Positions 3,177 through 61,365 of a stretch of DNA of 64,000 nt are shown here, piece by piece (the stretch's first letter is position 1; every line of letters begins with the position of its first letter). Under the pieces are notes generated by a model that made no database searches, was not told the DNA's origin, and worked only from the letters and a program-made list of their open reading frames with translations. The stretch spans positions 25,234,001-25,298,000 of the forward strand of contig CM059437.1 in assembly GCA_030390025.1 (NCBI GenBank), written 5' to 3'. Position numbers and translations under genes: made by a program. The stretch comes from Squalus acanthias (Eukaryota).

Positions 3177-3926
3177 GGGCTGGATTTTGTCTTGGGGTCG
3201 GGTTGGGGTCGTGTAATCCGCATTTTGTGCCCCCCCCCCCCCCGACTCCAGATTAATGTGGATGCCTGATGCAATTTTCACTTAATTGGGCAATTGAGTT
3301 GCAGCATGTGGGAACCCATGAACTAATTAGTGGTTTCAGTCTGAAACCCGCCTCTGATGATGTCATCATTGCTGACTGCCTGCTCTCAGAGATTGTCTGG
3401 CTACTGGTGAGAGAGGACCTGTCTGCATTGCTTCTGATGTGAGTGGACCTGGAGAGAGAGAGATATATATATATATATATGAGAGAGAGAATTTTTTGCA
3501 TCCAAGTCCTTTTACACCAAATGCCATGACATTGAATGTAGCAGTATCAGAGGCGACTTTCACACCTAATACTACTACTACCTTCATCACATCTCCGTTG
3601 TAATAGTGGACTTGCAGCCGATAGTCAGCTATCCACTTGTGCTCCCGCCAGGTTTCACTGGAGTGTTTCACACCAGGCGTGCTTCACGTCAGAAAAGGGT
3701 TAAACTAGCTACAACGTTTCAAAATAGCATTACAGACCCAATTTAGGGCTTGTTAAGGGTTTTAATGGCCTCTCCCGCCTCTTGCAGGCGGGAGAGAGTC
3801 GGGAACCCCGCGCCTGATTTTGTCAAAATTGCGTGGAGGCGGGATGGGGTCGGAAACCCGACCCTGCAAATTTAACCCCCCACACGCCTCCAAACCCGAC
3901 TCCATGGGTCATTCAAAATCCAGCCC
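3177..3926. mobile_element. PIF/Harbinger-type MITE
   Basis: Perfect 13-bp TIR GGGCTGGATTTTG/CAAAATCCAGCCC flanked by TTT/TTT 3-bp TSD; internal (GA)n(TA)n(GA)n microsatellite at 3451-3490. Confidence 0.8.
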
Positions 3927-5699
3927 TTTGCCTTTGCTCAGCTGCTGATTTTCAATCCTTTCCAACAACACTCAGCTCTGTTTCTGCTAATAAAAGCAGC
4001 TCCTCCATTCCTGCTAGTAGAGCAGCTGCTGCAAGAACATAAGAACCATCTTGGTCCATGAGCTGATCGGGGCCCCCCCGCCACATTCTCACCCACAACA
4101 TGACCTGCTGCAGATCTGAGCGAGCTCCCCCGACACCAGCTACAAACCCTGCAGCTGCAGAGGTGAGCACTAAAAGCAATCTTGCTGTCAGCCATTCTGC
4201 TGACGACTCCACTGAGATTAGCAATGTGGAGGTTGCCAGCAGGATTGCTAATGATGAGCATATATAAGATTTGCTGGAGTGAGTAGGAGCATGTTACCCA
4301 ATTATAGGTTCAAATGGCTTCCAAAAACCCCTGTACTTTTTCTTTCATTGTTTCTGGCTTCATCCGAGCCCTGTTACTAAGTTTCAGCCTCTAATTTCAA
4401 TTAACCGATAATAGTTGGTGGTGTCAGCAGGATTGTAATGAAGTATAATGGTGGATGGACGAAATTTTGTACCTGACCCAAGAAAGAGACCCATAGATTT
4501 TGTCCTTCCAAAGACGGAATATGTCTGGAGAGAGCATTCCGAGATATATAACACAAGAGGAAGTACAGATTTTGCTGGTAGTGATAGGTGCAATTTCAGA
4601 TGATGAATTCAGAGTTTCACATGAAGTGTATTGGATTGAATGTGATTTTTATTTTCCTCTCCTAGGATAAAGGTGTCAATATCTCTAATAGATAAGCTTC
4701 GTGACAATTTTGCATCCATTAGTCTGCATGTAATACATTTTAGGGCACCTGGAAGGGGTTGCAAGGCTGTATTTTATTAGTGCGGTGGGGGGGGGGGGGG
4801 GCGGGGTTTACCAATAAGCCCAAGTAATTTGTTAACATTATTTGGATCCCTTAATTCAGTCACTACTTTTAACCCACTTGTAATTATGTTACATACACTT
4901 TTTTAAAAGTAAATTTTCTTTCCTTTTATGTCTAAATTGTCCAAATTATAGCTGCAAACTCCAGGAATCCGGCACACACAACCTTGGGCCCTAATGCCAC
5001 ATTTTCTTCTTGTATTCTTAACCTATATTTCCTCCATTGTTAGGTTTAGCATTTTGAATTTAGCAGGCCTGGTGCATTGGACAAGAGCTTGACCTGCATT
5101 TGTGGATTTACAACCTAAAATCTGTCACTGACAGAGCAAACTTTCCCAATCTGCCAAGTCCACCAAGTTATTAAAGCCATTGAATGATGCAGTGGAGATA
5201 AGGCAAGTGTGCACAGGTAGCTAGCCAAATAAAAATCTTTGTTGATAGCCATTACATTTCCTGTGCCTCTGGATACTTCAGTTTTTGTTGGTGTTTTTAT
5301 CTTATGATAACCAACTGCTTTCGTTTAAAATTGGCACCTTTCAGTGAATGAGAAAAAGTAGTGTTGATTTTAATATCTTGCTTCGTACATCTGCTGCACT
5401 GAGTGTATATGGTTGTGAAGTTGAAGTACCATGATATAGGAAAAAGATTCTCAGAAAATGATTGATCTCTATTTGAAGGATTATATTTAGATGTTCACTA
5501 TTGTAGCAGTAAATGGGCGTAGACTGCTGGGAATTGATTGCAAGGAGGTGAAGAGTGAGAAACCTGGTTACCATTGGCAGATTTTCTATCTGTTGGGAAT
5601 TGAAATATTAAGATGGGTTTGTACAGTCAAATTGATCTGTTTCTTTGAGAGAAAGGCGCACAATGGCACTCTGCCACCAAAAAGTCACTTGTATGAAAG

Positions 5700-11920: not shown

Positions 11921-12236
11921 GAGTACAGTAGTATAGTGGTTAAGGTACTGGACTAGTAACCCGGAGATTGTGACCAGATCGTGCCAAGGAAAATTGTGAA
12001 ATTGAATTTAATAATCTGGTAATTTGCGGGCTAGCATCAGAAAAAATTATCCTAAAAGTTGCAGATTGTTCCAAATACCCAACTGGTTCATTAATGTCCC
12101 TTTTTTAGGGAAGGGAATCTGCCACCCCAATCTGGTCCAGCTGTGTGACTCTTCATGCTCTCTGAAGTGGCTTAACAAGCAACTAGGGATGGGCAATAAA
12201 TGCGGCCTTGTGAATGTCACCCATGTCCTGAGTAAT
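11921..12236 (+). mobile_element. tRNA-headed SINE (same head and tail as the 53867 LINE)
   Basis: tagtatagtggttaaggtactggactagtaac head; ggttcattaatgtcc...agggaagg body; agggatgggcaataaatgcggcc tail. Confidence 0.8.
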
Positions 12237-18980: not shown

Positions 18981-43828
<24,848 letters not shown>

Positions 43829-44461
43829 ATTCTGTGTGCCATTAACCAATGCAGGATCTATTGTTGTTGGTTATATCTTCAGTATGATTAACCACTAGTT
43901 ACAATGGTTTACACAATAATTTGTTTATATCTATTGTCTCTTGAAAATTAGTACTTTAATAATGTTACTACTCTGTTGCATATAATGCTTTAACTGCATT
44001 GTATCATGTTAATTTCCAGCTGCTTATTTCAAATTTAGCCCAACAAAGAAAGCTTTGTTTTACACCAGTCCAGTGCTTCAACATGGATCCGATCAGTCCT
44101 TGGCAATTGCAGATGGTTCAAAAGAAACAACTCTTCTGCAGTATATTGCAAGACTCTGGTGCACTATGGCAATGTGCTACCCTTTTACACTGTCCTTGTT
44201 CATGTGGATTTAGTAGATGTGTATTATCAACAGCTTCAAGTACACAATCCCAACTCATAGTGGGATGAAAAGTAAATTCTTCAGGAGTGTATTTTTTGCT
44301 GGTTTGAATTCAGAGATGATGCACTTATAAAAGAGATGTGGACTACATACCTGTGTCTTGGTCCCAGTGCACCTTGTTTGGAAAATGGCACCCAAGTGTG
44401 CAGAAACAGAGTACTGTGCATGACCAGTGTTTGTTTGAACTGCTTTTTAAATGTTTTTATT

Positions 44462-44845
44462 AATTCTCGGGATGTGGGTGTCCCTGGGAAGGCCGGCATT
44501 TATTGCCATTCCTAGTTGCCCTGAGAAGATGGTGGTGAGCCTCTTCTTGAACCTCTGTAGTGGTTTGCTACAACTGAATGGCTTGTTAGTCCATTTCAGA
44601 GGATTGTAAAGTCAACCACATTGGTGTGGAACTGGACTTGCATATAGGCCAGACCGGGTATGGGCAGCAAGTCTCCTTCCCTAAAGGACATTAGTGAATC
44701 GGTTGGGTTTTTACGACAATCCAAAGCTTTATGGTCACTTACTGATACCAGCTTATTATTTCCAGATTTTGAAAAACTGAATTCAAATTCTCAAACTGCC
44801 ATAATGGGAATTGAACTTGCGTACTCTGGATTATTAGTCTAGGCC
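44462..44845 (-). mobile_element. tRNA-headed SINE, antisense within the presumed STAT3 3'UTR
   Basis: ggatgtgggtgtc...gcatttattgcc...ccttccctaaaggacattagtgaa...ctggattattagt is the reverse complement of the 53867 head/tail. Confidence 0.85.
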
Positions 44846-46509
44846 TCTCGATTACTTGCACTGAATAGAGCTCTGCAGGGATGACGGTTCTGAGACTGGA
44901 CTACAGAGAGCAGGTGTCAATCGCTGTGTTAATCAGCTCTCCTTTCTCTGGCTATTCACCAGTTCCCACAGGGAAGCATGTTGTTATGGTGCACGGGGCA
45001 AGCTGACTGCTCAATTTATTTCCAGAGTCTGCTTAAGTTTCTTGATGAGTAAATGGATATTGTAGTGCGATGCTAAATTTAGCAGGACAGTGGGATGTTA
45101 ATGAGGCTGGTTGTTAGGTAAATAATGAAAAGTTGTTCTCTATGTAGATTAATTGTTTTTATATTAAAAGCATTTTTTTGTTATAACTCTTAAACGAGGT
45201 TCTAAAAGACAAAGCTGCATCCATGTGGTGTATTGCCCCTGAGGAAAGAGCCAATCCAACATTACTAATAAATTTAGAAATGTTTGAAAATGTAAATTGC
45301 ATTAAGCTGCAGGGAATTGTAATATGTCTGTGATTTGTACTTTAAAAAGGTATTGTTGGCATTGTAGAAAGTGAACAATAATGGAAACTGCCTGGGCCAG
45401 AGGTAGAAAATTACAATTCAGTGGAGTGCATTTGGCTAAGGATTTAAGGTCTGCAATCATTCTGTATTTCAATAATGCAGTGTTTATTATTGACAAAAGT
45501 ATATTCAGAGCAATGCTTGGTCTAACAATGGGAATGCATTTTTAAGAATTCTTGATGTTGCTCTAGTGCTTGAGGTTGTTTGAAGTAAATGGAATGTGCA
45601 AGTAAAATGTCAAGTATGACAATGCTAGCAAAGGTTTGTATATATTGGACCATCAAAACCTTTTTTGAAGGTCTGGTGTTTGGGCTGGGGAGGGGAGAGG
45701 ATTAGAAATCCCATTTGAACCCAGGTCTTTTGGCCTAAGTGTTAGAAAAATGGTCGATTCAAGATGAGTTTTTTACTTTTGCCATGTGAAGCTTCTGTGT
45801 GAAGACTGCATTATAGAGTTAACAACTCCAATGGGCTTGCATTGTGCTACCATGTGGATAATGATGAGTTAAACTGTATAATCATGGTTTTCGACATGTA
45901 AGTCAGAAATCCACGATTAAGCCACAACGAAGCAGTTTTTAGTGTACTCTTGTAAATTTTTTTGTACATTATGGGAGAGGGAGGAAAAATTCTACAAGTT
46001 TGAAACAATTTTTTGATGAGGAATTTGAATTTATCACTGTAGGAAAAAGTAAATCTCGAGCAGAGAGCTACAAAGATGTCCAAATTGCATTCTGACTGGT
46101 TTGAGTAACTGAGTAACCTTTTATTACCTCCCATCTCCCTGCTTCAGTATAATGCAGTTCAGTTTCTTCGTGCCGTAAAGCCGACTGTGTACCTCCACTG
46201 TCTTACTCAAAAATGATTGCTTTTCGGAAGTAGGGAAGCATATTTTTAATCCCCTCCATTGTATATGAATGCATGATGTAATGAATTCTAAAACTGGTTG
46301 AATATCACTGTTAAGCTGTAAAACATTCTCTTACAGTGCATCCGATTCTGTTTTAAGCATTTTTAATTAATTTCATTTGTGAAATGTATGGTTTGACTGT
46401 ATTCAAGATGTGTATATGAAAAGTGTGTATAAATGATATAGGCAGCATTCATTTATGCTGTAAATTTTATTGCTGTAATACTGAAAACTATCTCCTTATC
46501 CTTTTACTG

Positions 46510-51854: not shown

Positions 51855-53270
51855 TACATAGAATGTACAGCGCAGAAACGGCCCATTCGGCCCAACTGGT
51901 CCATGGTCCACACAAGCCTCCTCCCACCCCTCATCATCTAACCCTATCAGCCTAACCTTCTATTCCTTTCTCCCTCATATGTTTAGCTAAATGCATCTAT
52001 GCTATTCGCCTTAACGACACCATGTGGTAGCGAGTTCCAAATTCTAACCACTCTGGGTAAAGGAAGTTTCTCCTGAATTCCCTATTGGATTTATTGGTGA
52101 CTATCTTATATTTGTGGCCCCTAGTTTTGAATTCTTCCCACAGATAGAAACATTTTCTCTACGTCTACCCTATCAAACCCTTACCTCTATCAGGTCACTC
52201 CACTCAGCCTTCTCTTTTCTAGAGAAAAGGGCCCCAGTCCATTCAGTCTTTCCTGCTAGGTACAACCTCTCAGTTCTGGTATCATACTTGTAAATCTTTT
52301 TTGCACCTTCTCCAGTGCCTCTATATCCTTTTTATAATGTGGAGGCCAGAACTGTGCTCAGTAACAAGTGTGATCTGACCAAGGTTCTACAGAAGTTTAA
52401 TATAAATTCTCTGCTTTTCAACTCTATCCCTCTAGAAATGAACTCTAGCGCTTTGTTTGCTGTTTTTATGGCCTTATTAACCTGTGTCGCTACTTTTAGT
52501 GATTTGTGTCTCAGCACCCCTAGATCCCTTTGCTCCTCTATCTCATTTAGACTCTTAATGTGACCTCCTTATTCTTCCTACCAAAATGCACCACCTCACA
52601 CTTAGCTGTATTGAAATTAATTTGCCAATTACACGCCACTTCTGCAAGTCTGTTAATGTCTTGTAATTTGTCGCTGTCTTCCTCAGTATTGACTATACTT
52701 CCCAATTTGGTGTCATCTGAAAATGTTGAAATTGTACTTCTGATTCCCGAGTCCAAATCATTTATGTAAATGGTGAACAACAGTGTTTCCAGCAGCGATC
52801 CCTGTGGAACACCACTTCCCACCTTTTGTCAGTCTCAGTGGCTACCTTTAACCCCTACTCTCTCTTTTCTGTTTTGTAACCAGTTTGCTATTTATTCTGC
52901 TACTTGTTCCCTGACTTCACATGCGTTGACTTTTTTTCACGAGTCTACTATGCAGTACCTTATCAAAGGCCTTTTGAAAATCTAAATATATTACATCTGC
53001 TGCATTACCCTTGTCTATTCTTTCTGTTATTTCTTCAAAGAATTCAATAAGGTTGGTCAAGCATGACCCCGTGCTGACTATTCTTTACTATATTTTCAGA
53101 TTATTCTACGACCTCTTTGAGTAAAGATTCCATTATCATTCCTACCACCGCATTAAGCTAACTGGTCTAATGTTCCCTGGACTTGTTCTATCTCCCTTTT
53201 TAAATATAGGAATAACATTAGCTGTCGACCAGTCCTCTGCCACTTTTCCCTTTCCTATTGATTTTTGAGA
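51855..53270 (-). mobile_element. Degraded CR1 LINE ORF2/3' fragment
   Basis: Minus-strand SGVPQGSLL..LFTIYINDLD...FSDDTKLG and KANKALEFISRGIELKSRE; 3' tail near 51855. Confidence 0.88.
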
Positions 53271-53866
53271 TATGTCATCGTGCCTGCAGTTTGCTGCAGT
53301 TCATTTCTGCTTTACTCAATGTTGAAGGTTCTGCTACAGTCTTTGTTCAAGAATCAAAGTCAATAGCTTCCCTGGTGTCTTAGTTGGTAACTGCAGAGGA
53401 AAGTCTGTGGGTTCGATCGTAGGTCTGTGCTGAGTTCACTGATCTCATGTCAGGGCAACACCTGAGGTGCCACAAGTGGCTTCTATATCTCTGGGTTAGG
53501 GAGTGAAGAAGTACCGAGAATTTCTGCTCCTGCTTGTTCTATGGAAAGTGTGGATGTTAGTTAAGGGCAGAATCAGTTCAAATAACCTGCCAACATCTGC
53601 TGGCTGGGTGCCAATTTGAAGAATGGTAAATTGAATGCGATACTGTAGGGCTACAGGTGCCCACGGAACTGTACCTCAGCGTAAGTCAGTGCCTTCAACA
53701 AATGAGAGGAAAAAAATTGAGGGGGATTGAACACTATTGTGGCTGTTCACTTTCTGATGCTCAGATCCCATCATACATTACTATTAAAATAATTTCTATA
53801 TAAACTAAGTTTTGCGATCCAGATTCAATACACATTTTTTTGCCTAATTTTCTTCATTCCCTTTCA

Positions 53867-56635
53867 GGGAACGGTAGCATAGTGGTTATGTTACTGGATT
53901 AGTAATCCAGAGGCCTGGACTAATGATCCGGAGACGTGAGTTCAAATCCCACCACGGCAGCTGGGGAATTTAAATTCAGTTAATTAAATAAATCTGGAAT
54001 AATTACCAGTATCAGTAATGGTGACCATGAAACTATCGGATTGTCACAAAAACCCATCTGGTTCACTAATGTCCTTTAGGGAAGGAAATCTGCCGTCCGT
54101 ACCTGGTCTGGCCTATATGTGATTCCAGACCCGCAGCAATGTGGTTGACTCTTAACTGCCCTCTGAAATGGCCTAGCAAGCCACTCAGTTGTAAAAAAAC
54201 TGCTACGACAAACAATAAGAATAAAACTGGACGGACCACCCGGCATCGACCTCCACACCAGCTACAGACACGACAATGGTACACCCAGCCCAGTCGACCC
54301 TGCAATGTCCTCCTCACCAACATCTGGGGACTTGTGCCAAAATTGGGAGAGCTATCCCACAGACTAGTCAAGCAACAGCCTGACAAACTCATATCCACAG
54401 AATCATACCTTTCAACCAATGTCCCAAACTCCTCCATCACCATCCCTGGGTATGTCCTGTACCACCAGCAGGACAGATCCACCGGGGTGGCGGCACAGTG
54501 GTATACAGTCAGGAAGGCGTGGCCCTTGGAGTCCTCAACATTGACTCCGGACCGCATGAACCTCCTGCTGATTACCACCTACTGCCCTCCCTCAGCTAAT
54601 GAATCAATACTCCTCCATGTTAAACACCACTTGGAAGAAGCACTGAGAGTAGCAAGGGCACAGAATGTACTCTGGGTGGGGGACTTCAATGTCAATCACC
54701 AAGAGTGGCTTGGTAGCACCACTACTGACCGAGCTGGCCGAGTCCTGAAGGACTTAGCTGCCAGTCTGGGCCTGCGACAGGTGGTGAGAGAACCAACACG
54801 AGGGAAAAACCTACTTGACCTCGTCCTCACCAATCTACCCGTCGCAGCTGCATCTGTCCATGACAGCATTGGTAGTAGTGACCACCGCACAGTCATTGTG
54901 GAGATGAAGTCCCGTCTTCACAATGCGGACACCCTCCATCGTGTTGTGTGCGCTACCACTGTGCTAAATGGGATAGATTCAGAACAGATCTAGCAGCTCA
55001 AAACTGGGCATCCATGAGGCGCAGAATTGTATTCCACCACCGGATCCAGCAAAGGTTATGGGCCCCGACAACATCCCGGCTTTCATGCTGAAGACTTGTG
55101 CTCCAGAACTAGCCACGCATCTAGCCAAGCTGTTCCAGTACAGCTGCAACACTGGCATCGAGCCGACAATGTGGCAAACTGCCCAGGTAGGTCCTGTCCA
55201 CAAAAAGCAGGACAAATCCAATCCAGCCAATTACCGCCCCAGCCAATTACCGCCCCATCAATCTACTCTCAATCTACTCTCAATCATCAGCAAAGTGATG
55301 GAAGGTGTCGTCGACAGTGCTATCAAGCGGCACTTACTCACCAATAACCTGCTCACTGATGCCCAGTTTGGGTTCCACCAAGACCACTCGGCTCCAGACC
55401 TAATTGCATCTTGGTCCAAACATGGACAAAAGAGCTGAATTCCAGAGGTGAGGTGAGAGTGACTGCTCTTGACATCAAGGCAGCATTTAACCAAATGTAG
55501 CATCAAGGAGCCCTAGTAAAACTGAAGTCAATGGGAATTGGGGGGGGGGAAACTCTCCACTGGCTGGAGTCATACCTAGCACAATGGAAGATGGTTGTGG
55601 TGGTTGGAGGTCAATCATCACAGCCCCAGGACATTGCTGCAGGAGTTCCTCAGGGCAGTGTCCTAGGCCCAACCATCTTCAGCTGCTTCATCAATGACCT
55701 TCCCTCCATCATAAGGTCAGAAGTGGGGATGTTCGCTGATGACTGCACAGTGTTCAGTGTCATTTGCAACTCCTCAGATAATGAAGCAGTCCATGCCCGC
55801 ATGCAACAAGACCTCGACGACGTTCAGGCTTCGGCTGATAAGTGGCAGGTAACATGCGCGCCACAGAAGTGCGAAGGCAATGACTATCTCCAACAAGCGA
55901 GCGTCTAACCACCGCCCCTTGACATTCAACGGCATTACCATTGCCAAATCTCCCACCATCAATATTCTGGGGGGTCATCATTCACCAGAAACTTAACTGG
56001 ACCAACCACATACATACTGTGGCAACAAGAGCAGATCAGAGGCTAGGTATTCTGCAGCAAGTGTCTCACCTCCTGACTCCCCAAAGCCTTTCCACCATCT
56101 GCAAGGCACAAGTCAGGAGTGTGATGGAATGCTCTCCACTTGCCTGGATGAGTGCAGCCCCAACAACACTCAAGAAGCTCGACACCATCCAAGACAAAGC
56201 AGCCTGCTTGATTGACACCCCATCCACCACCTTAAACATTCACTCCCTCCACCACCAGCCTACCGTGGTTGCAGTGTGTACTATCTACAAGATGCACTGC
56301 AGCAACTCGCCAAGGCTTCTTCGGCAGCACCTTCCAAACCCGCAACCTCTACCACCTAGAAGGACAAGGGCAGCAGGCGCATGGGAACAACACCACCTCC
56401 AAGTTCCCCTCCAAGTCACACACCATCCTGACTTGGAAGTATATCGCCGTTCCTTCATCGTCGCTGGGTCAAAACCCTGGAACTCCCTCCCTAACAGCAC
56501 TGTGGGAGTACCTTCACCACACGGACTGCAGTGGTTCAAGAAGGTGGCTCACCATCACCTTCTCAAGGGCCAATAGGGATGGGCAATAAATGCTGGCCTT
56601 GCCAGCGACGCCCACATCCCATGAATGAATAAACA
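53867..56635 (+). mobile_element. CR1-group (Zenon-like) LINE, degraded EN+RT, with tRNA-like 5' head
   Basis: A box tagcatagtggt (~53875), B box gagttcaaatccc (53938-53950); APE motifs TNIWGL, GDFN, PTRGKNLLDLVLTN, SDH; RT motifs GPDNIP, NYRP, GVPQGSVLGP, FADD, KAQVRSVME; (atga)n tail; several frameshifts and an internal deletion. Confidence 0.88.
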
Positions 56636-56694
56636 AATAAACCTCTCCTGAAGGTGCTAACTCCTTGCTGGGATATAGTTCTACAGCCACCTTC

Positions 56695-58440
56695 TTGGCC
56701 CCTTGAGCCTGCCCCGCCATTCAATAAGATCATGGCTGATCTTGGGCTCAAAGCCACTTCCCCGCCCGCTCCCCATAACCCTTCACTCCCTTATCTTGCA
56801 AAAATCTGTCTATCTCCACCTTAAACGTACTTGATGACCCAGCCTCCACCGCTCTCTGGGGCAGAGAATTCCACAGATTTACAACCCTCTGAGAGAAGAA
56901 ATTCCTCCTCATCTCAGTTCTAAAAGGGCGACCCTTTATTCTAAAACTGTGCCCCGCGTTCTAGATTCCCCACGAGGGGAAACATCCTCTCTGCATCTAC
57001 CTTGTCGAGCCAACTCAGTATCTTATATGTTTCAATAAGATCACCTCTCATTCTTCTAAATTCCAATGAGTATAGGCCCAGCCTGCTCAAACTTTCCTCA
57101 TAAGTCAACCCCCTCATCTCTGGAATTAACCTAGTGAATTGTCTCTGAACTGCCTCTAATGCAAGTATATCCTTCCTTAAATAAGGAGACCAAAACTGTA
57201 CGCAGTACTCAAGGTGTGGTCTTACCAATACCCTGTACAGTTGTAGCAGGACTTCCCTGCTTTTATAATCCAACCCCTTTGAAATAAAGGCCAACATTAC
57301 ATTTGCCTTTTTGATTACTTGCTGTACCTGCATGCTAACTTTTTGTGTTTCATGCACAAGGACCCCCAGGTCCCTCTGAACTGTAGCATTTTGTAATCTC
57401 TCTCCATTTAAATAATAATTTGCTTTTTTATTTTTCCTGCCAAAGTGTATAACCTCACACTTTCCCACATTATACTCCATCTGCCAAATGTTTGCCCACT
57501 CACTTAGCCTGTCTATATCCCTTTGCAGGTTCTTTGAGTCCTCTGCACAACTTGCTTTCCCACCCATCTTTGTATCATCCGCAAACTTGGCTACATTACA
57601 CTCGGTCCCTTCATCCAAGTCATTAATGTAGATTGTAAATAGCTGAGGCCCCAGCACCGATCCCTGTTGCACCCCACTAGTTACCGTTTGCCAACCGGAA
57701 AATGACCCATTTATCCTGACTCTCTGCTTTCTGTTAGTTAGCCAATTCTCTATCCATGCTAATATATTACCCCCAATTCCGTGAGCTCTTATCTTATGCA
57801 GTAACCTTTTATGTGGCACCTTATCGAATGCCTTCTGGAAATCCAAATACACCACATCCACTGGTTTACCTTTGTCCACCCTGCTCGTTACCTCCTCAAA
57901 GAACTCCAGCAAGTTTGTTAAACATGATTTCCCTTTCATAAAACCATGCTGACTCTGCGTGACTGCATTATGATTTTCCAAATGCCCTGCTACTGCTTCC
58001 TTAATGAAGGACTCCAGCATTTTCCCAACCACAGATGTTAGGCTAACTGGTCTATAGTTTCCTGCTTTCTGTCTCCCTCCTTTCTTAAATAGGGGTGTTA
58101 CATTTGCGGTTTTCCAATCCGCTGGGACCTCTCCAGAGTCCAGGGAATTTTGGTATATTGCAACCAATGCATCCACTATCTCTGCAGCCACTTCTTTTAA
58201 GACCCTGGGATGCAGGCCATCTGGTCCAGGGGACTTGTCGTCTTTTAGTCCCATTATTTTACCAAGGACTATTTCCTTAGTGATAGTAATTGTCTTTAGT
58301 TTCCCCCCTCCCTGTGGCCCCTTGATTATCCATTATTGGGATGTTGTTAGTGTCTTCTACTGTGAAGACAGATACAAAATATTTGTTCAGAGTCTCTGCC
58401 ATTTCCCCGTTCCCTATTATTAATTCCCCAGTCTCATCCT
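56695..58440 (-). mobile_element. 5'-truncated CR1 LINE with 437-aa RT ORF (56941-58254)
   Basis: KSPGPDG, NYRPVSLTS, YLDFQKAFDKV, QGSVLGP, FADDTK, VRPHLEYCVQFWSP; C-terminal frameshift; CR1 3'UTR near 56700. Confidence 0.95.
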
Positions 58441-60624: not shown

Positions 60625-60734
60625 AATGTTTCCTCTAACTAACTGTGAGCAAGGTCATGGGAGATGGATATTTTAAAAAATTTAGCCTGAGAGAAGATGA
60701 ACAGCTCATTTCAGGCCTTTATTACAAGAGGATT

Positions 60735-61365
60735 TGATTGGCCTTTATTACAAGAGGATTGGAGTATAAGAGTAAAGATGTCTTACTGCAATTATATAGG
60801 GCCCTGGTGAGACCACACCTGGAGTATTGTGTACAGTTTTGGTCTCCTTACCTAAGAAAGGATATACTTGCCAGAGAGGGAGTGCAACGAAAGTTCACCA
60901 GACTGGTTCCTGGGATGGGGGGATTGTCCTATGAGGAGAGATTGAGTAGACTAGGTCGATATTCTCTAGAGTTTAGAAGAATGAGAGGTGATCTCATTGA
61001 AACATACAAAATTCTTACAGGGCTTGACAGGGTAGATGCAGGGAGGATGTTTCCCCTGGCTGGGGAGTCTAGAACCAGAGGTCACAGTCTCAGAATAAGG
61101 GGTCGGCCATTTAGGACTGAGATGAGGAGAAATTTCTTCACTCAGAGGGTGGTGAATCTTTGGAATTCTCTACCCCAGAGGGTTGTGGAGGCTCAGTCGT
61201 TGAGTATATTCAAGACAGAGATCGATAGATTTTTGTATATTAAGGGAATCAAGGGATATGGGAATAGTGCAGGAAAGTGGAGTTGATGTAGAAGATCAGC
61301 CATGATCTTATTGAATGGCCAAATGGCCTACTCCTGCTCCTATTTCTTATGTTCTTATGTTCTTA
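60735..61365 (+). mobile_element. CR1 LINE 3' fragment (young)
   Basis: Uninterrupted 182-aa ORF2 C-terminus (60738-61286) and (ttcttatg)n tail. Confidence 0.93.

Follow-up and report, generated by a model that had tools for sequence, protein, structure and literature searches.

A tRNA-type head forms the 5' end of an elasmobranch Zenon LINE and, with a sense strand poor in T-runs, points to transcription by RNA polymerase III

Introduction

LINEs are taken to be transcripts of RNA polymerase II (Pol II), or co-transcripts of Pol I; short RNAs without coding capacity are what Pol III is taken to make. In vertebrates, four or more consecutive T residues terminate Pol III.

Several described systems come close to the element reported here. 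The elasmobranch Zenon LINEs, with SquAca_Zenon-1 among them (Stuart et al. 2026, PMC13343379), are 3.3 kb long, with one ORF joining an APE endonuclease to a reverse transcriptase (RT), no ORF1 and an A tail; a poly-A end is listed as a Zenon trait in that source. The Deu-SINEs SacSINE1 and LmeSINE1 (Luchetti et al. 2017, PMC5499810) carry a tRNA head with A and B boxes, a central body and a LINE-type tail. As described there, SacSINE1 relatives in chimaera and coelacanth share head, body and tail, with LINE homology in the tail only; the partner LINE of both Deu-SINEs is listed as CR1-4_DR-like (PMC3747384), and descriptions of the Deu domain are found in PMC5499810 and PMC4824008. Bipartite internal-deletion derivatives, joining the two ends of a LINE at many breakpoints, are described for RTE, Vingi and R2 (Kojima 2018, PMC5786205; as SIDEs, PMC6765202), and in the account of Kojima SINE bodies with LINE 5' parts are given for RTE and Vingi only. 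The TRIMs Cassandra, Helenus and Ajax possess an internal Pol III promoter derived from a small RNA (Kojima 2024, PMC10886601); non-LTR elements are described as Pol II transcripts in the same source, which counts against the reading proposed below. R2 and L1Tc are single-ORF LINEs with uncapped RNA, for which a putative IRES-like translation is described (PMC6765202).

Here we analysed a window of 64,000 nucleotides from Squalus acanthias (contig CM059437.1, positions 25,234,001 to 25,298,000), in which locus 53867-56640 on the plus strand is one degraded copy of a retrotransposon that is abundant in sharks and rays and encodes its own copying enzyme. The Zenon family with its consensus and the SINE are already in print; new are the identification of this element as a Zenon, the heads across species and the headless controls.

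Results

A Zenon LINE with a single reading frame

The features of the locus, and of related sequences in the window, are as follows.

53867..53956, plus strand: tRNA-derived head, its base 1 being the family 5' end (Rfam tRNA, copy starts)
53875..53885, plus strand: predicted A box of a type 2 Pol III promoter (sequence, A+B pattern)
53938..53949, plus strand: predicted B box (sequence; exact B-box words in six elasmobranch Zenon consensuses)
53957..54195, plus strand: SINE-type, Deu-like body, the presumed 5' UTR (about 90% shared with the short SINE)
54196..56576, plus strand: single endonuclease and reverse transcriptase ORF (Pfam Exo_endo_phos_2, RVT_1)
56576..56620, plus strand: 3' stem-loop tail, common to the short SINE (fold -23.7 kcal/mol; z -1.7, weak)
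56621..56640, plus strand: short A-rich end (sequence)
56695..58440, minus strand: neighbouring canonical CR1 fragment, a control outside the element (463-aa RT frame)
44456..44856, minus strand: short SINE copy, with the tail following immediately on head and body (80-83% to the element by BLAST)
36753..37152, plus strand: second short SINE copy (BLAST to the element)

The genome was searched with the start of the ORF, and the best 40 of 4266 candidates were scored. The 39 loci outside the window gave 32 colinear copies in addition to the window copy; with four carrying unrelated insertions left out, 29 S. acanthias copies yielded a column majority of 3313 bp with one 972-codon frame, whose first Met is codon 286. 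The copies diverge from this majority by 4% on average. The window copy is 2.8 kb long against 3.31 kb for the family because 35 bp after 54558, 20 bp after 55020 and 512 bp after 55037 have been lost, and its ORF is broken by frameshifts and by these deletions. A second sample, blind to the head, consisted of the 30 top-scoring hits of a distantly related protein (34-37% identity); all 30 proved to be the same Zenon family, and the head was present on every one long enough to carry it. A third majority was made from 10 older copies.

The majority frame joins APE endonuclease and RT in one ORF by Pfam, no ORF1 is present (only about 330 nt precede the ORF), and the copies end in short A tails. 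SquAca_Zenon-1 (3314 bp), as given in Table S2 of PMC13343379, matches the family by eye in its first 400 nt and in length. By its sequence, then, the family is an elasmobranch Zenon LINE of the CR1 group, SquAca_Zenon-1. The nearest database proteins are those of unnamed single-ORF LINEs (39-43% identity), and more than half of the sampled head and ORF-start words are present in five organisms. No target-site duplications were seen by eye around the copies, and the viral contigs searched held no relative of the element. Two shark protein records, P0002 (aldo-keto reductase) and P0008 (SVEP1-like), contain stretches of the LINE protein (88% and 77%), reflecting either gene models that take in element sequence or exonisation. 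Further old SINE pieces and CR1 fragments lie in the window at 11925-12210, 28470-28980, 30217-30269, 51989-53273 and 60666-61247.

The head is the true 5' end

The Rfam tRNA model matched 53874-53953 with 25.5 bits, under its gathering score of 29 (E 0.03), and the match spans model positions 7-64 only, leaving out the acceptor stem. ARAGORN run on the window reported no intact tRNA at the head, and a cloverleaf fold of the head was not obtained. The boxes were named by the A- and B-box consensus. The A+B-box pattern used was the third tried; it passed the positive control that the first two had failed, and it matches the family head, none of 160 foreign LINE loci and not the RTE family described below. 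With two boxes and a 5' end lying just upstream of the A box, the head has the arrangement of a type 2 promoter.

Base 1 is the starting point of 23 of the 81 copies that retain the head-ORF junction, and 26 begin within bases 1-3, in unrelated flanks; the starts of the remaining 55 are scattered over bases 4-343. The short SINE begins at the same base as the LINE, and older subfamilies (79-91% identity) carry the head too. The tRNA head is thus the genuine 5' end of the family. At about bases 110-120 (window 53975-53990), older copies and SINEs show a slippery T(n)A(n) tract with 1-6 T; the young subfamily has a fixed TTAATT there in 37/37 LINE copies.

Heads across sharks and rays

Sharks and rays split roughly 250-300 million years ago. 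In Table S2 of PMC13343379, all seven elasmobranch Zenon consensuses, from white shark, whale shark, catshark, dogfish and stingray, open with the tRNA head. The A box is visible in all seven and an exact B box in six, that of stingray being imperfect, and the spacer between the boxes varies among species while the boxes stay. The four B-box words sought are absent from all other rows of the table within the first 400 characters of each sequence. By eye, the first 400 nt hold no run of four or more T (T4+) in any of the seven headed consensuses, and 7, 1 and 5 such runs in the three hagfish and coelacanth Zenons, which have no head; the coelacanth 5' end is given with low confidence. The words tRNA, polymerase and promoter are absent from the main text of that article, in which the head of its consensuses goes uncommented.

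The two nearest full-length relatives with DNA (L207 and L208, 36-37% identity) have 36 and 20 T4 runs in their ORFs, and Rfam found no head on either. Rfam tRNA heads were likewise absent from 15 + 15 + 11 foreign loci, a negative of little weight because many of these loci are 5'-truncated. No headless sister family of the Zenon lineage was found in 1.38 Mb of the S. acanthias genome; a supposed sister turned out to be mostly the same Zenon family.

T-runs are depleted on the sense strand

The sequence-only reading had claimed that the plus strand of 53867-56640 holds no T4+ run although A runs are frequent, that the neighbouring CR1 has several on its sense strand, and that selection for Pol III read-through was the cause. 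The counts agree with the first two statements: there is no T4+ run in 2774 bp (T 0.209, eight T3 runs), there are 10 A4+, 9 C4+ and 7 G4+ runs, and the CR1 has seven sense-strand T4+ runs in 1746 bp. The T4-free gap, from 53848 to 57261 (3413 bp), is the longest in the window, the next being 1302 bp, against a plus-strand background of 9.5 T4 runs per kb. The absence also extends to the family, with zero T4+ runs in the majorities of 29, 30 and 10 copies; the 29- and 30-copy young majorities share seven identical TTT sites, and single copies have a few T4 runs at scattered places. T4+ runs in the consensus, one of the two refutations that the earlier note had named, are thus absent. Non-canonical T3VT2 or T2VT3 sites do not occur in the family majorities.

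How surprising this is depends on the null model. Base shuffles of the window copy gave 4.2 T4 runs (P=0.011) and dinucleotide shuffles 2.2 (P=0.09); for the majority (T 0.196) the figures were 3.9 (P 0.016) and 1.7 (P 0.165). When codons were shuffled, 1.6-1.9 runs were expected (P 0.10-0.16), and here the earlier claim stood only in part: zero T4 was not significant, and TT and TTT were depleted (P<=0.004). Since P is 0.10-0.17 under codon and dinucleotide shuffles, the zero count is by itself modest, and the lack of an internal T4+ terminator, as expected of a Pol III unit, is weak evidence alone. With synonymous codons shuffled, the ORF has 5 TTT against 11.2 expected (P 0.004; 0.001 in a second set) and 74 TT against 90 (P<0.001), with A, C and G runs as expected. 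Phe makes up 1.9% of the family protein, a value equally low in 4 of 83 related proteins. P0040, P0041, P0058 and P0066 form a sub-lineage of related single-ORF LINE proteins with 1.6-1.8% Phe.

As controls we used 135 ORFs with frames of at least 400 codons, from 58 of 80 metagenome and 77 of 80 MAG loci. The observed/expected ratios of the family were the lowest of all, at 0.81-0.82 for TT (control minima 0.87) and 0.43-0.45 for TTT (control minimum 0.69). As z-scores the family is less extreme: at -2.6 for TTT three controls lie lower (-3.2, -2.8, -2.7), and at -4.0 for TT at least one does (-4.6). Some foreign ORFs are also nearly free of T4 (L437, 0 in 1287; L381, 1 in 2859; L440, 1 in 2034; L428, 1 in 1422); no head was found on these four loci, of which L381, L428 and L440 are 5'-truncated. 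L440 has in 3500-5550 a T content of 0.29 and one T4 run in 2034 bp where about 10 are expected. Many of the prokaryotic MAGs (L379-L458) carry eukaryotic LINE contigs, most likely as host contamination.

The closest control comes from the same genome, in which a headless RTE family has a single T-run, a conserved T5 near the stop codon, in 3511 bp (T 0.169); because of that position it is T4-free for more than 3 kb. Its T-runs follow composition (TTT 13 against 13.9 expected). In pooled natural copies, which are non-independent, T4 runs per kb were 0.18 for the Zenon family (1.38 expected), 0.46 for RTE (0.82) and 3.5 for CR1 (3.0). Whether related headless LINEs are equally depleted, the refutation that the earlier note had named, thus receives a divided answer: L207, L208 and the hagfish and coelacanth Zenons are rich in T4, and the RTE family of the same genome is nearly T4-free, by composition. 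The RTE family (L162-L176, L072-L131) is young and abundant, its copies diverging by about 3% from their majority. Its sense strand is rich in C and poor in T, a TATA-like word at its 5' end is surrounded by tandem repeats of 29 bp and 19 bp, and its tail is AAG.

A selected frame without an in-frame AUG

Between subfamily majorities, synonymous and non-synonymous codon changes stand at 21:19 and 36:33, against 824:2158 in the decay of copies; the head-bearing lineage has therefore been selected for its protein, with noise added by CpG decay. The majority has no in-frame AUG for this ORF. The closest one, in AUG-GCC-UAG, lies where the body ends (54168); the body also holds other upstream AUGs, and in only 2 of 76 LINE-type copies is the body AUG open into the ORF. 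Translation would therefore have to start unconventionally, whichever polymerase makes the RNA, and R2 and L1Tc offer precedents for uncapped LINE RNA being translated (PMC6765202). A -1 frameshift at the A-run after the body was ruled out, that A-run being missing in other subfamilies. Just inside the ORF (window 54223-54229), an AUG in the +1 frame would open an overlapping frame of about 48 codons; it is kept in the white shark, whale shark, catshark, stingray and dogfish consensuses as tabulated and in one young subfamily, and is AUA in the window copy and others.

Short SINEs as deletion derivatives

Thirty-two short copies (13% from their own majority) match the LINE at about 90% over its first 340 and last 115 nt, leaving essentially no base unaccounted for, and their 3' part starts within the last ORF codons. 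A junction pattern matched 51 times, and the 50 matches examined form a series running from full-length LINE to short forms with many breakpoints. Given this graded series, we conclude that the short elements here are deletions of the headed LINE. A junction guessed for the short SINE proved rare, with two exact matches. The element itself, at 3.3 kb and with a coding frame, is not a short non-coding SINE; only its deletion derivatives are SINE-sized. The Deu name of the body is provisional and follows the literature descriptions.

Of 127 family and SINE tails, 19 have a T4+ run ahead of the As, and no clear trade-off with A length was seen; runs of this kind can also lengthen in copies already inserted (PMC8466645).

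The head predates sharks and is missing from other Zenons, which makes its capture from a SINE the likelier direction; the LINE probably acquired it from an older Deu-type SINE, in an ancestor common to sharks and rays. It is less likely that the SINE lineage descends from an ancient LINE that already had the head.

Discussion

A tRNA-type promoter together with a sense strand almost without T-runs makes Pol III transcription likely, and we interpret the element as an autonomous LINE that is probably transcribed end to end by Pol III, a reading to which we give a probability of roughly 0.6. The proposal of selection for Pol III read-through accordingly survives in part, carried by the TT and TTT depletion and by the promoter anatomy, with zero T4 alone contributing little. 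TFIIIC would bind the A and B boxes, and Pol III would start at base 1, cross 3.3 kb without meeting a terminator and end at a T-run located at the A tail or downstream of it. Translation of this uncapped RNA would do without an in-frame AUG, through a cap-independent, near-cognate or reinitiation start, and the product would recognise the 3' stem-loop and, in cis, copy the RNA that encodes it by target-primed reverse transcription. Since capture of the head, internal deletions would repeatedly have given SINE-sized derivatives. The fuller history, in which the family has since the shark and ray ancestor been a Pol III-transcribed autonomous LINE translated from uncapped RNA, with its ORF purged of terminators, the Deu body as 5' UTR and SINEs arising by deletion, seems to us slightly better than an even bet. 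The lack of ORF1 and the poly-A end are common to all Zenons described in our source, headless ones included, and lend no specific support to Pol III.

The alternative that deserves most weight, though we consider it unlikely, is a Pol II LINE with a passive head, transcribed from an internal Pol II promoter or using the head as a TFIIIC boundary; T4 would be missing through C-rich, T-poor composition and codon use, or through avoidance of U-rich RNA signals. The headless RTE family, with a TATA-like word at its 5' end and one T-run across its length, shows that such a sense strand can occur without a head; several foreign LINEs are T4-poor, the zero count loses significance once codons or dinucleotides are controlled, and a capped RNA would make translation simpler. 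The RTE T-runs, however, fit composition, whereas the Zenon family is depleted beyond both composition and codon use. Other signals are not avoided, pyrimidine tract-AG sites numbering 2 against 0.8 expected and AATAAA 5 against 1.1, in both cases small numbers. A passive head would also leave unexplained the start at the first tRNA base, and why the boxes have been kept across the five species tabulated while the spacer drifts, and a ribosome scanning from a cap would meet several upstream AUGs, none in frame.

It is also conceivable, at rather long odds, that the labour is split, with Pol III making the RNA that is copied and the protein being translated from capped RNA that Pol II makes by reading through the same copy or others. 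Head, pile-up of 5' ends and T-run depletion fit this equally well, and no uncapped RNA need be translated. The family does occur in RNA-type runs, as contigs that show no starts or ends and at a depth following copy number, and its 3'-weighted profile there resembles that in a large run whose type is not recorded. That the ORF is under purifying selection would, however, be most easily understood if the protein acts on its own RNA, and read-through RNA would still be without an in-frame AUG. Least probable is a processing signal, in which RNase P-style cutting of a tRNA-like head would release the 5' end of the element from transcripts made by host Pol II, a part played by HDV-like ribozymes in R2, L1Tc and some RTEs: it predicts the same exact 5' end, and self-cleaving 5' ends are described in other LINEs (PMC6765202), but the head gave no cloverleaf, no acceptor stem in its Rfam match and nothing with ARAGORN, and T-run depletion is not predicted.

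If transcription by Pol III is correct, a LINE present in many copies, with a tRNA promoter that has persisted in both sharks and rays, would break the division between Pol II LINEs and non-coding Pol III products, and would provide a natural 3.3-kb protein-coding Pol III transcript. The element bears on the role and origin of conserved SINE bodies, because its body would be the 5' UTR of a selected ORF lacking an AUG and SINE-sized elements arise from it by deletion. No description of a shared LINE/SINE head or of Pol III transcription of this family was found in full-text searches of the openly accessible literature.

Compared with known systems, the family is the Zenon of Stuart et al. 2026 in length, ORF and tail, and the head, Pol III boxes, T-run depletion and link to SINEs are undescribed in the main text of that work (PMC13343379). 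In SacSINE1 and LmeSINE1, as described in PMC5499810, only the tail is homologous to the partner LINE, whereas here head and body are the 5' end of the LINE, SacSINE1 being compared by description. For the RTE, Vingi and R2 derivatives, transcription by Pol II or Pol I is assumed, with a tRNA head added later (PMC5786205, PMC6765202). Cassandra, Helenus and Ajax differ in being short, non-coding and of LTR type (PMC10886601). R2 and L1Tc have a 5' end that a ribozyme cuts out of RNA co-transcribed by Pol I or Pol II, and are described with no Pol III promoter (PMC6765202), unlike the Zenon family, whose 5' end is the tRNA head itself.
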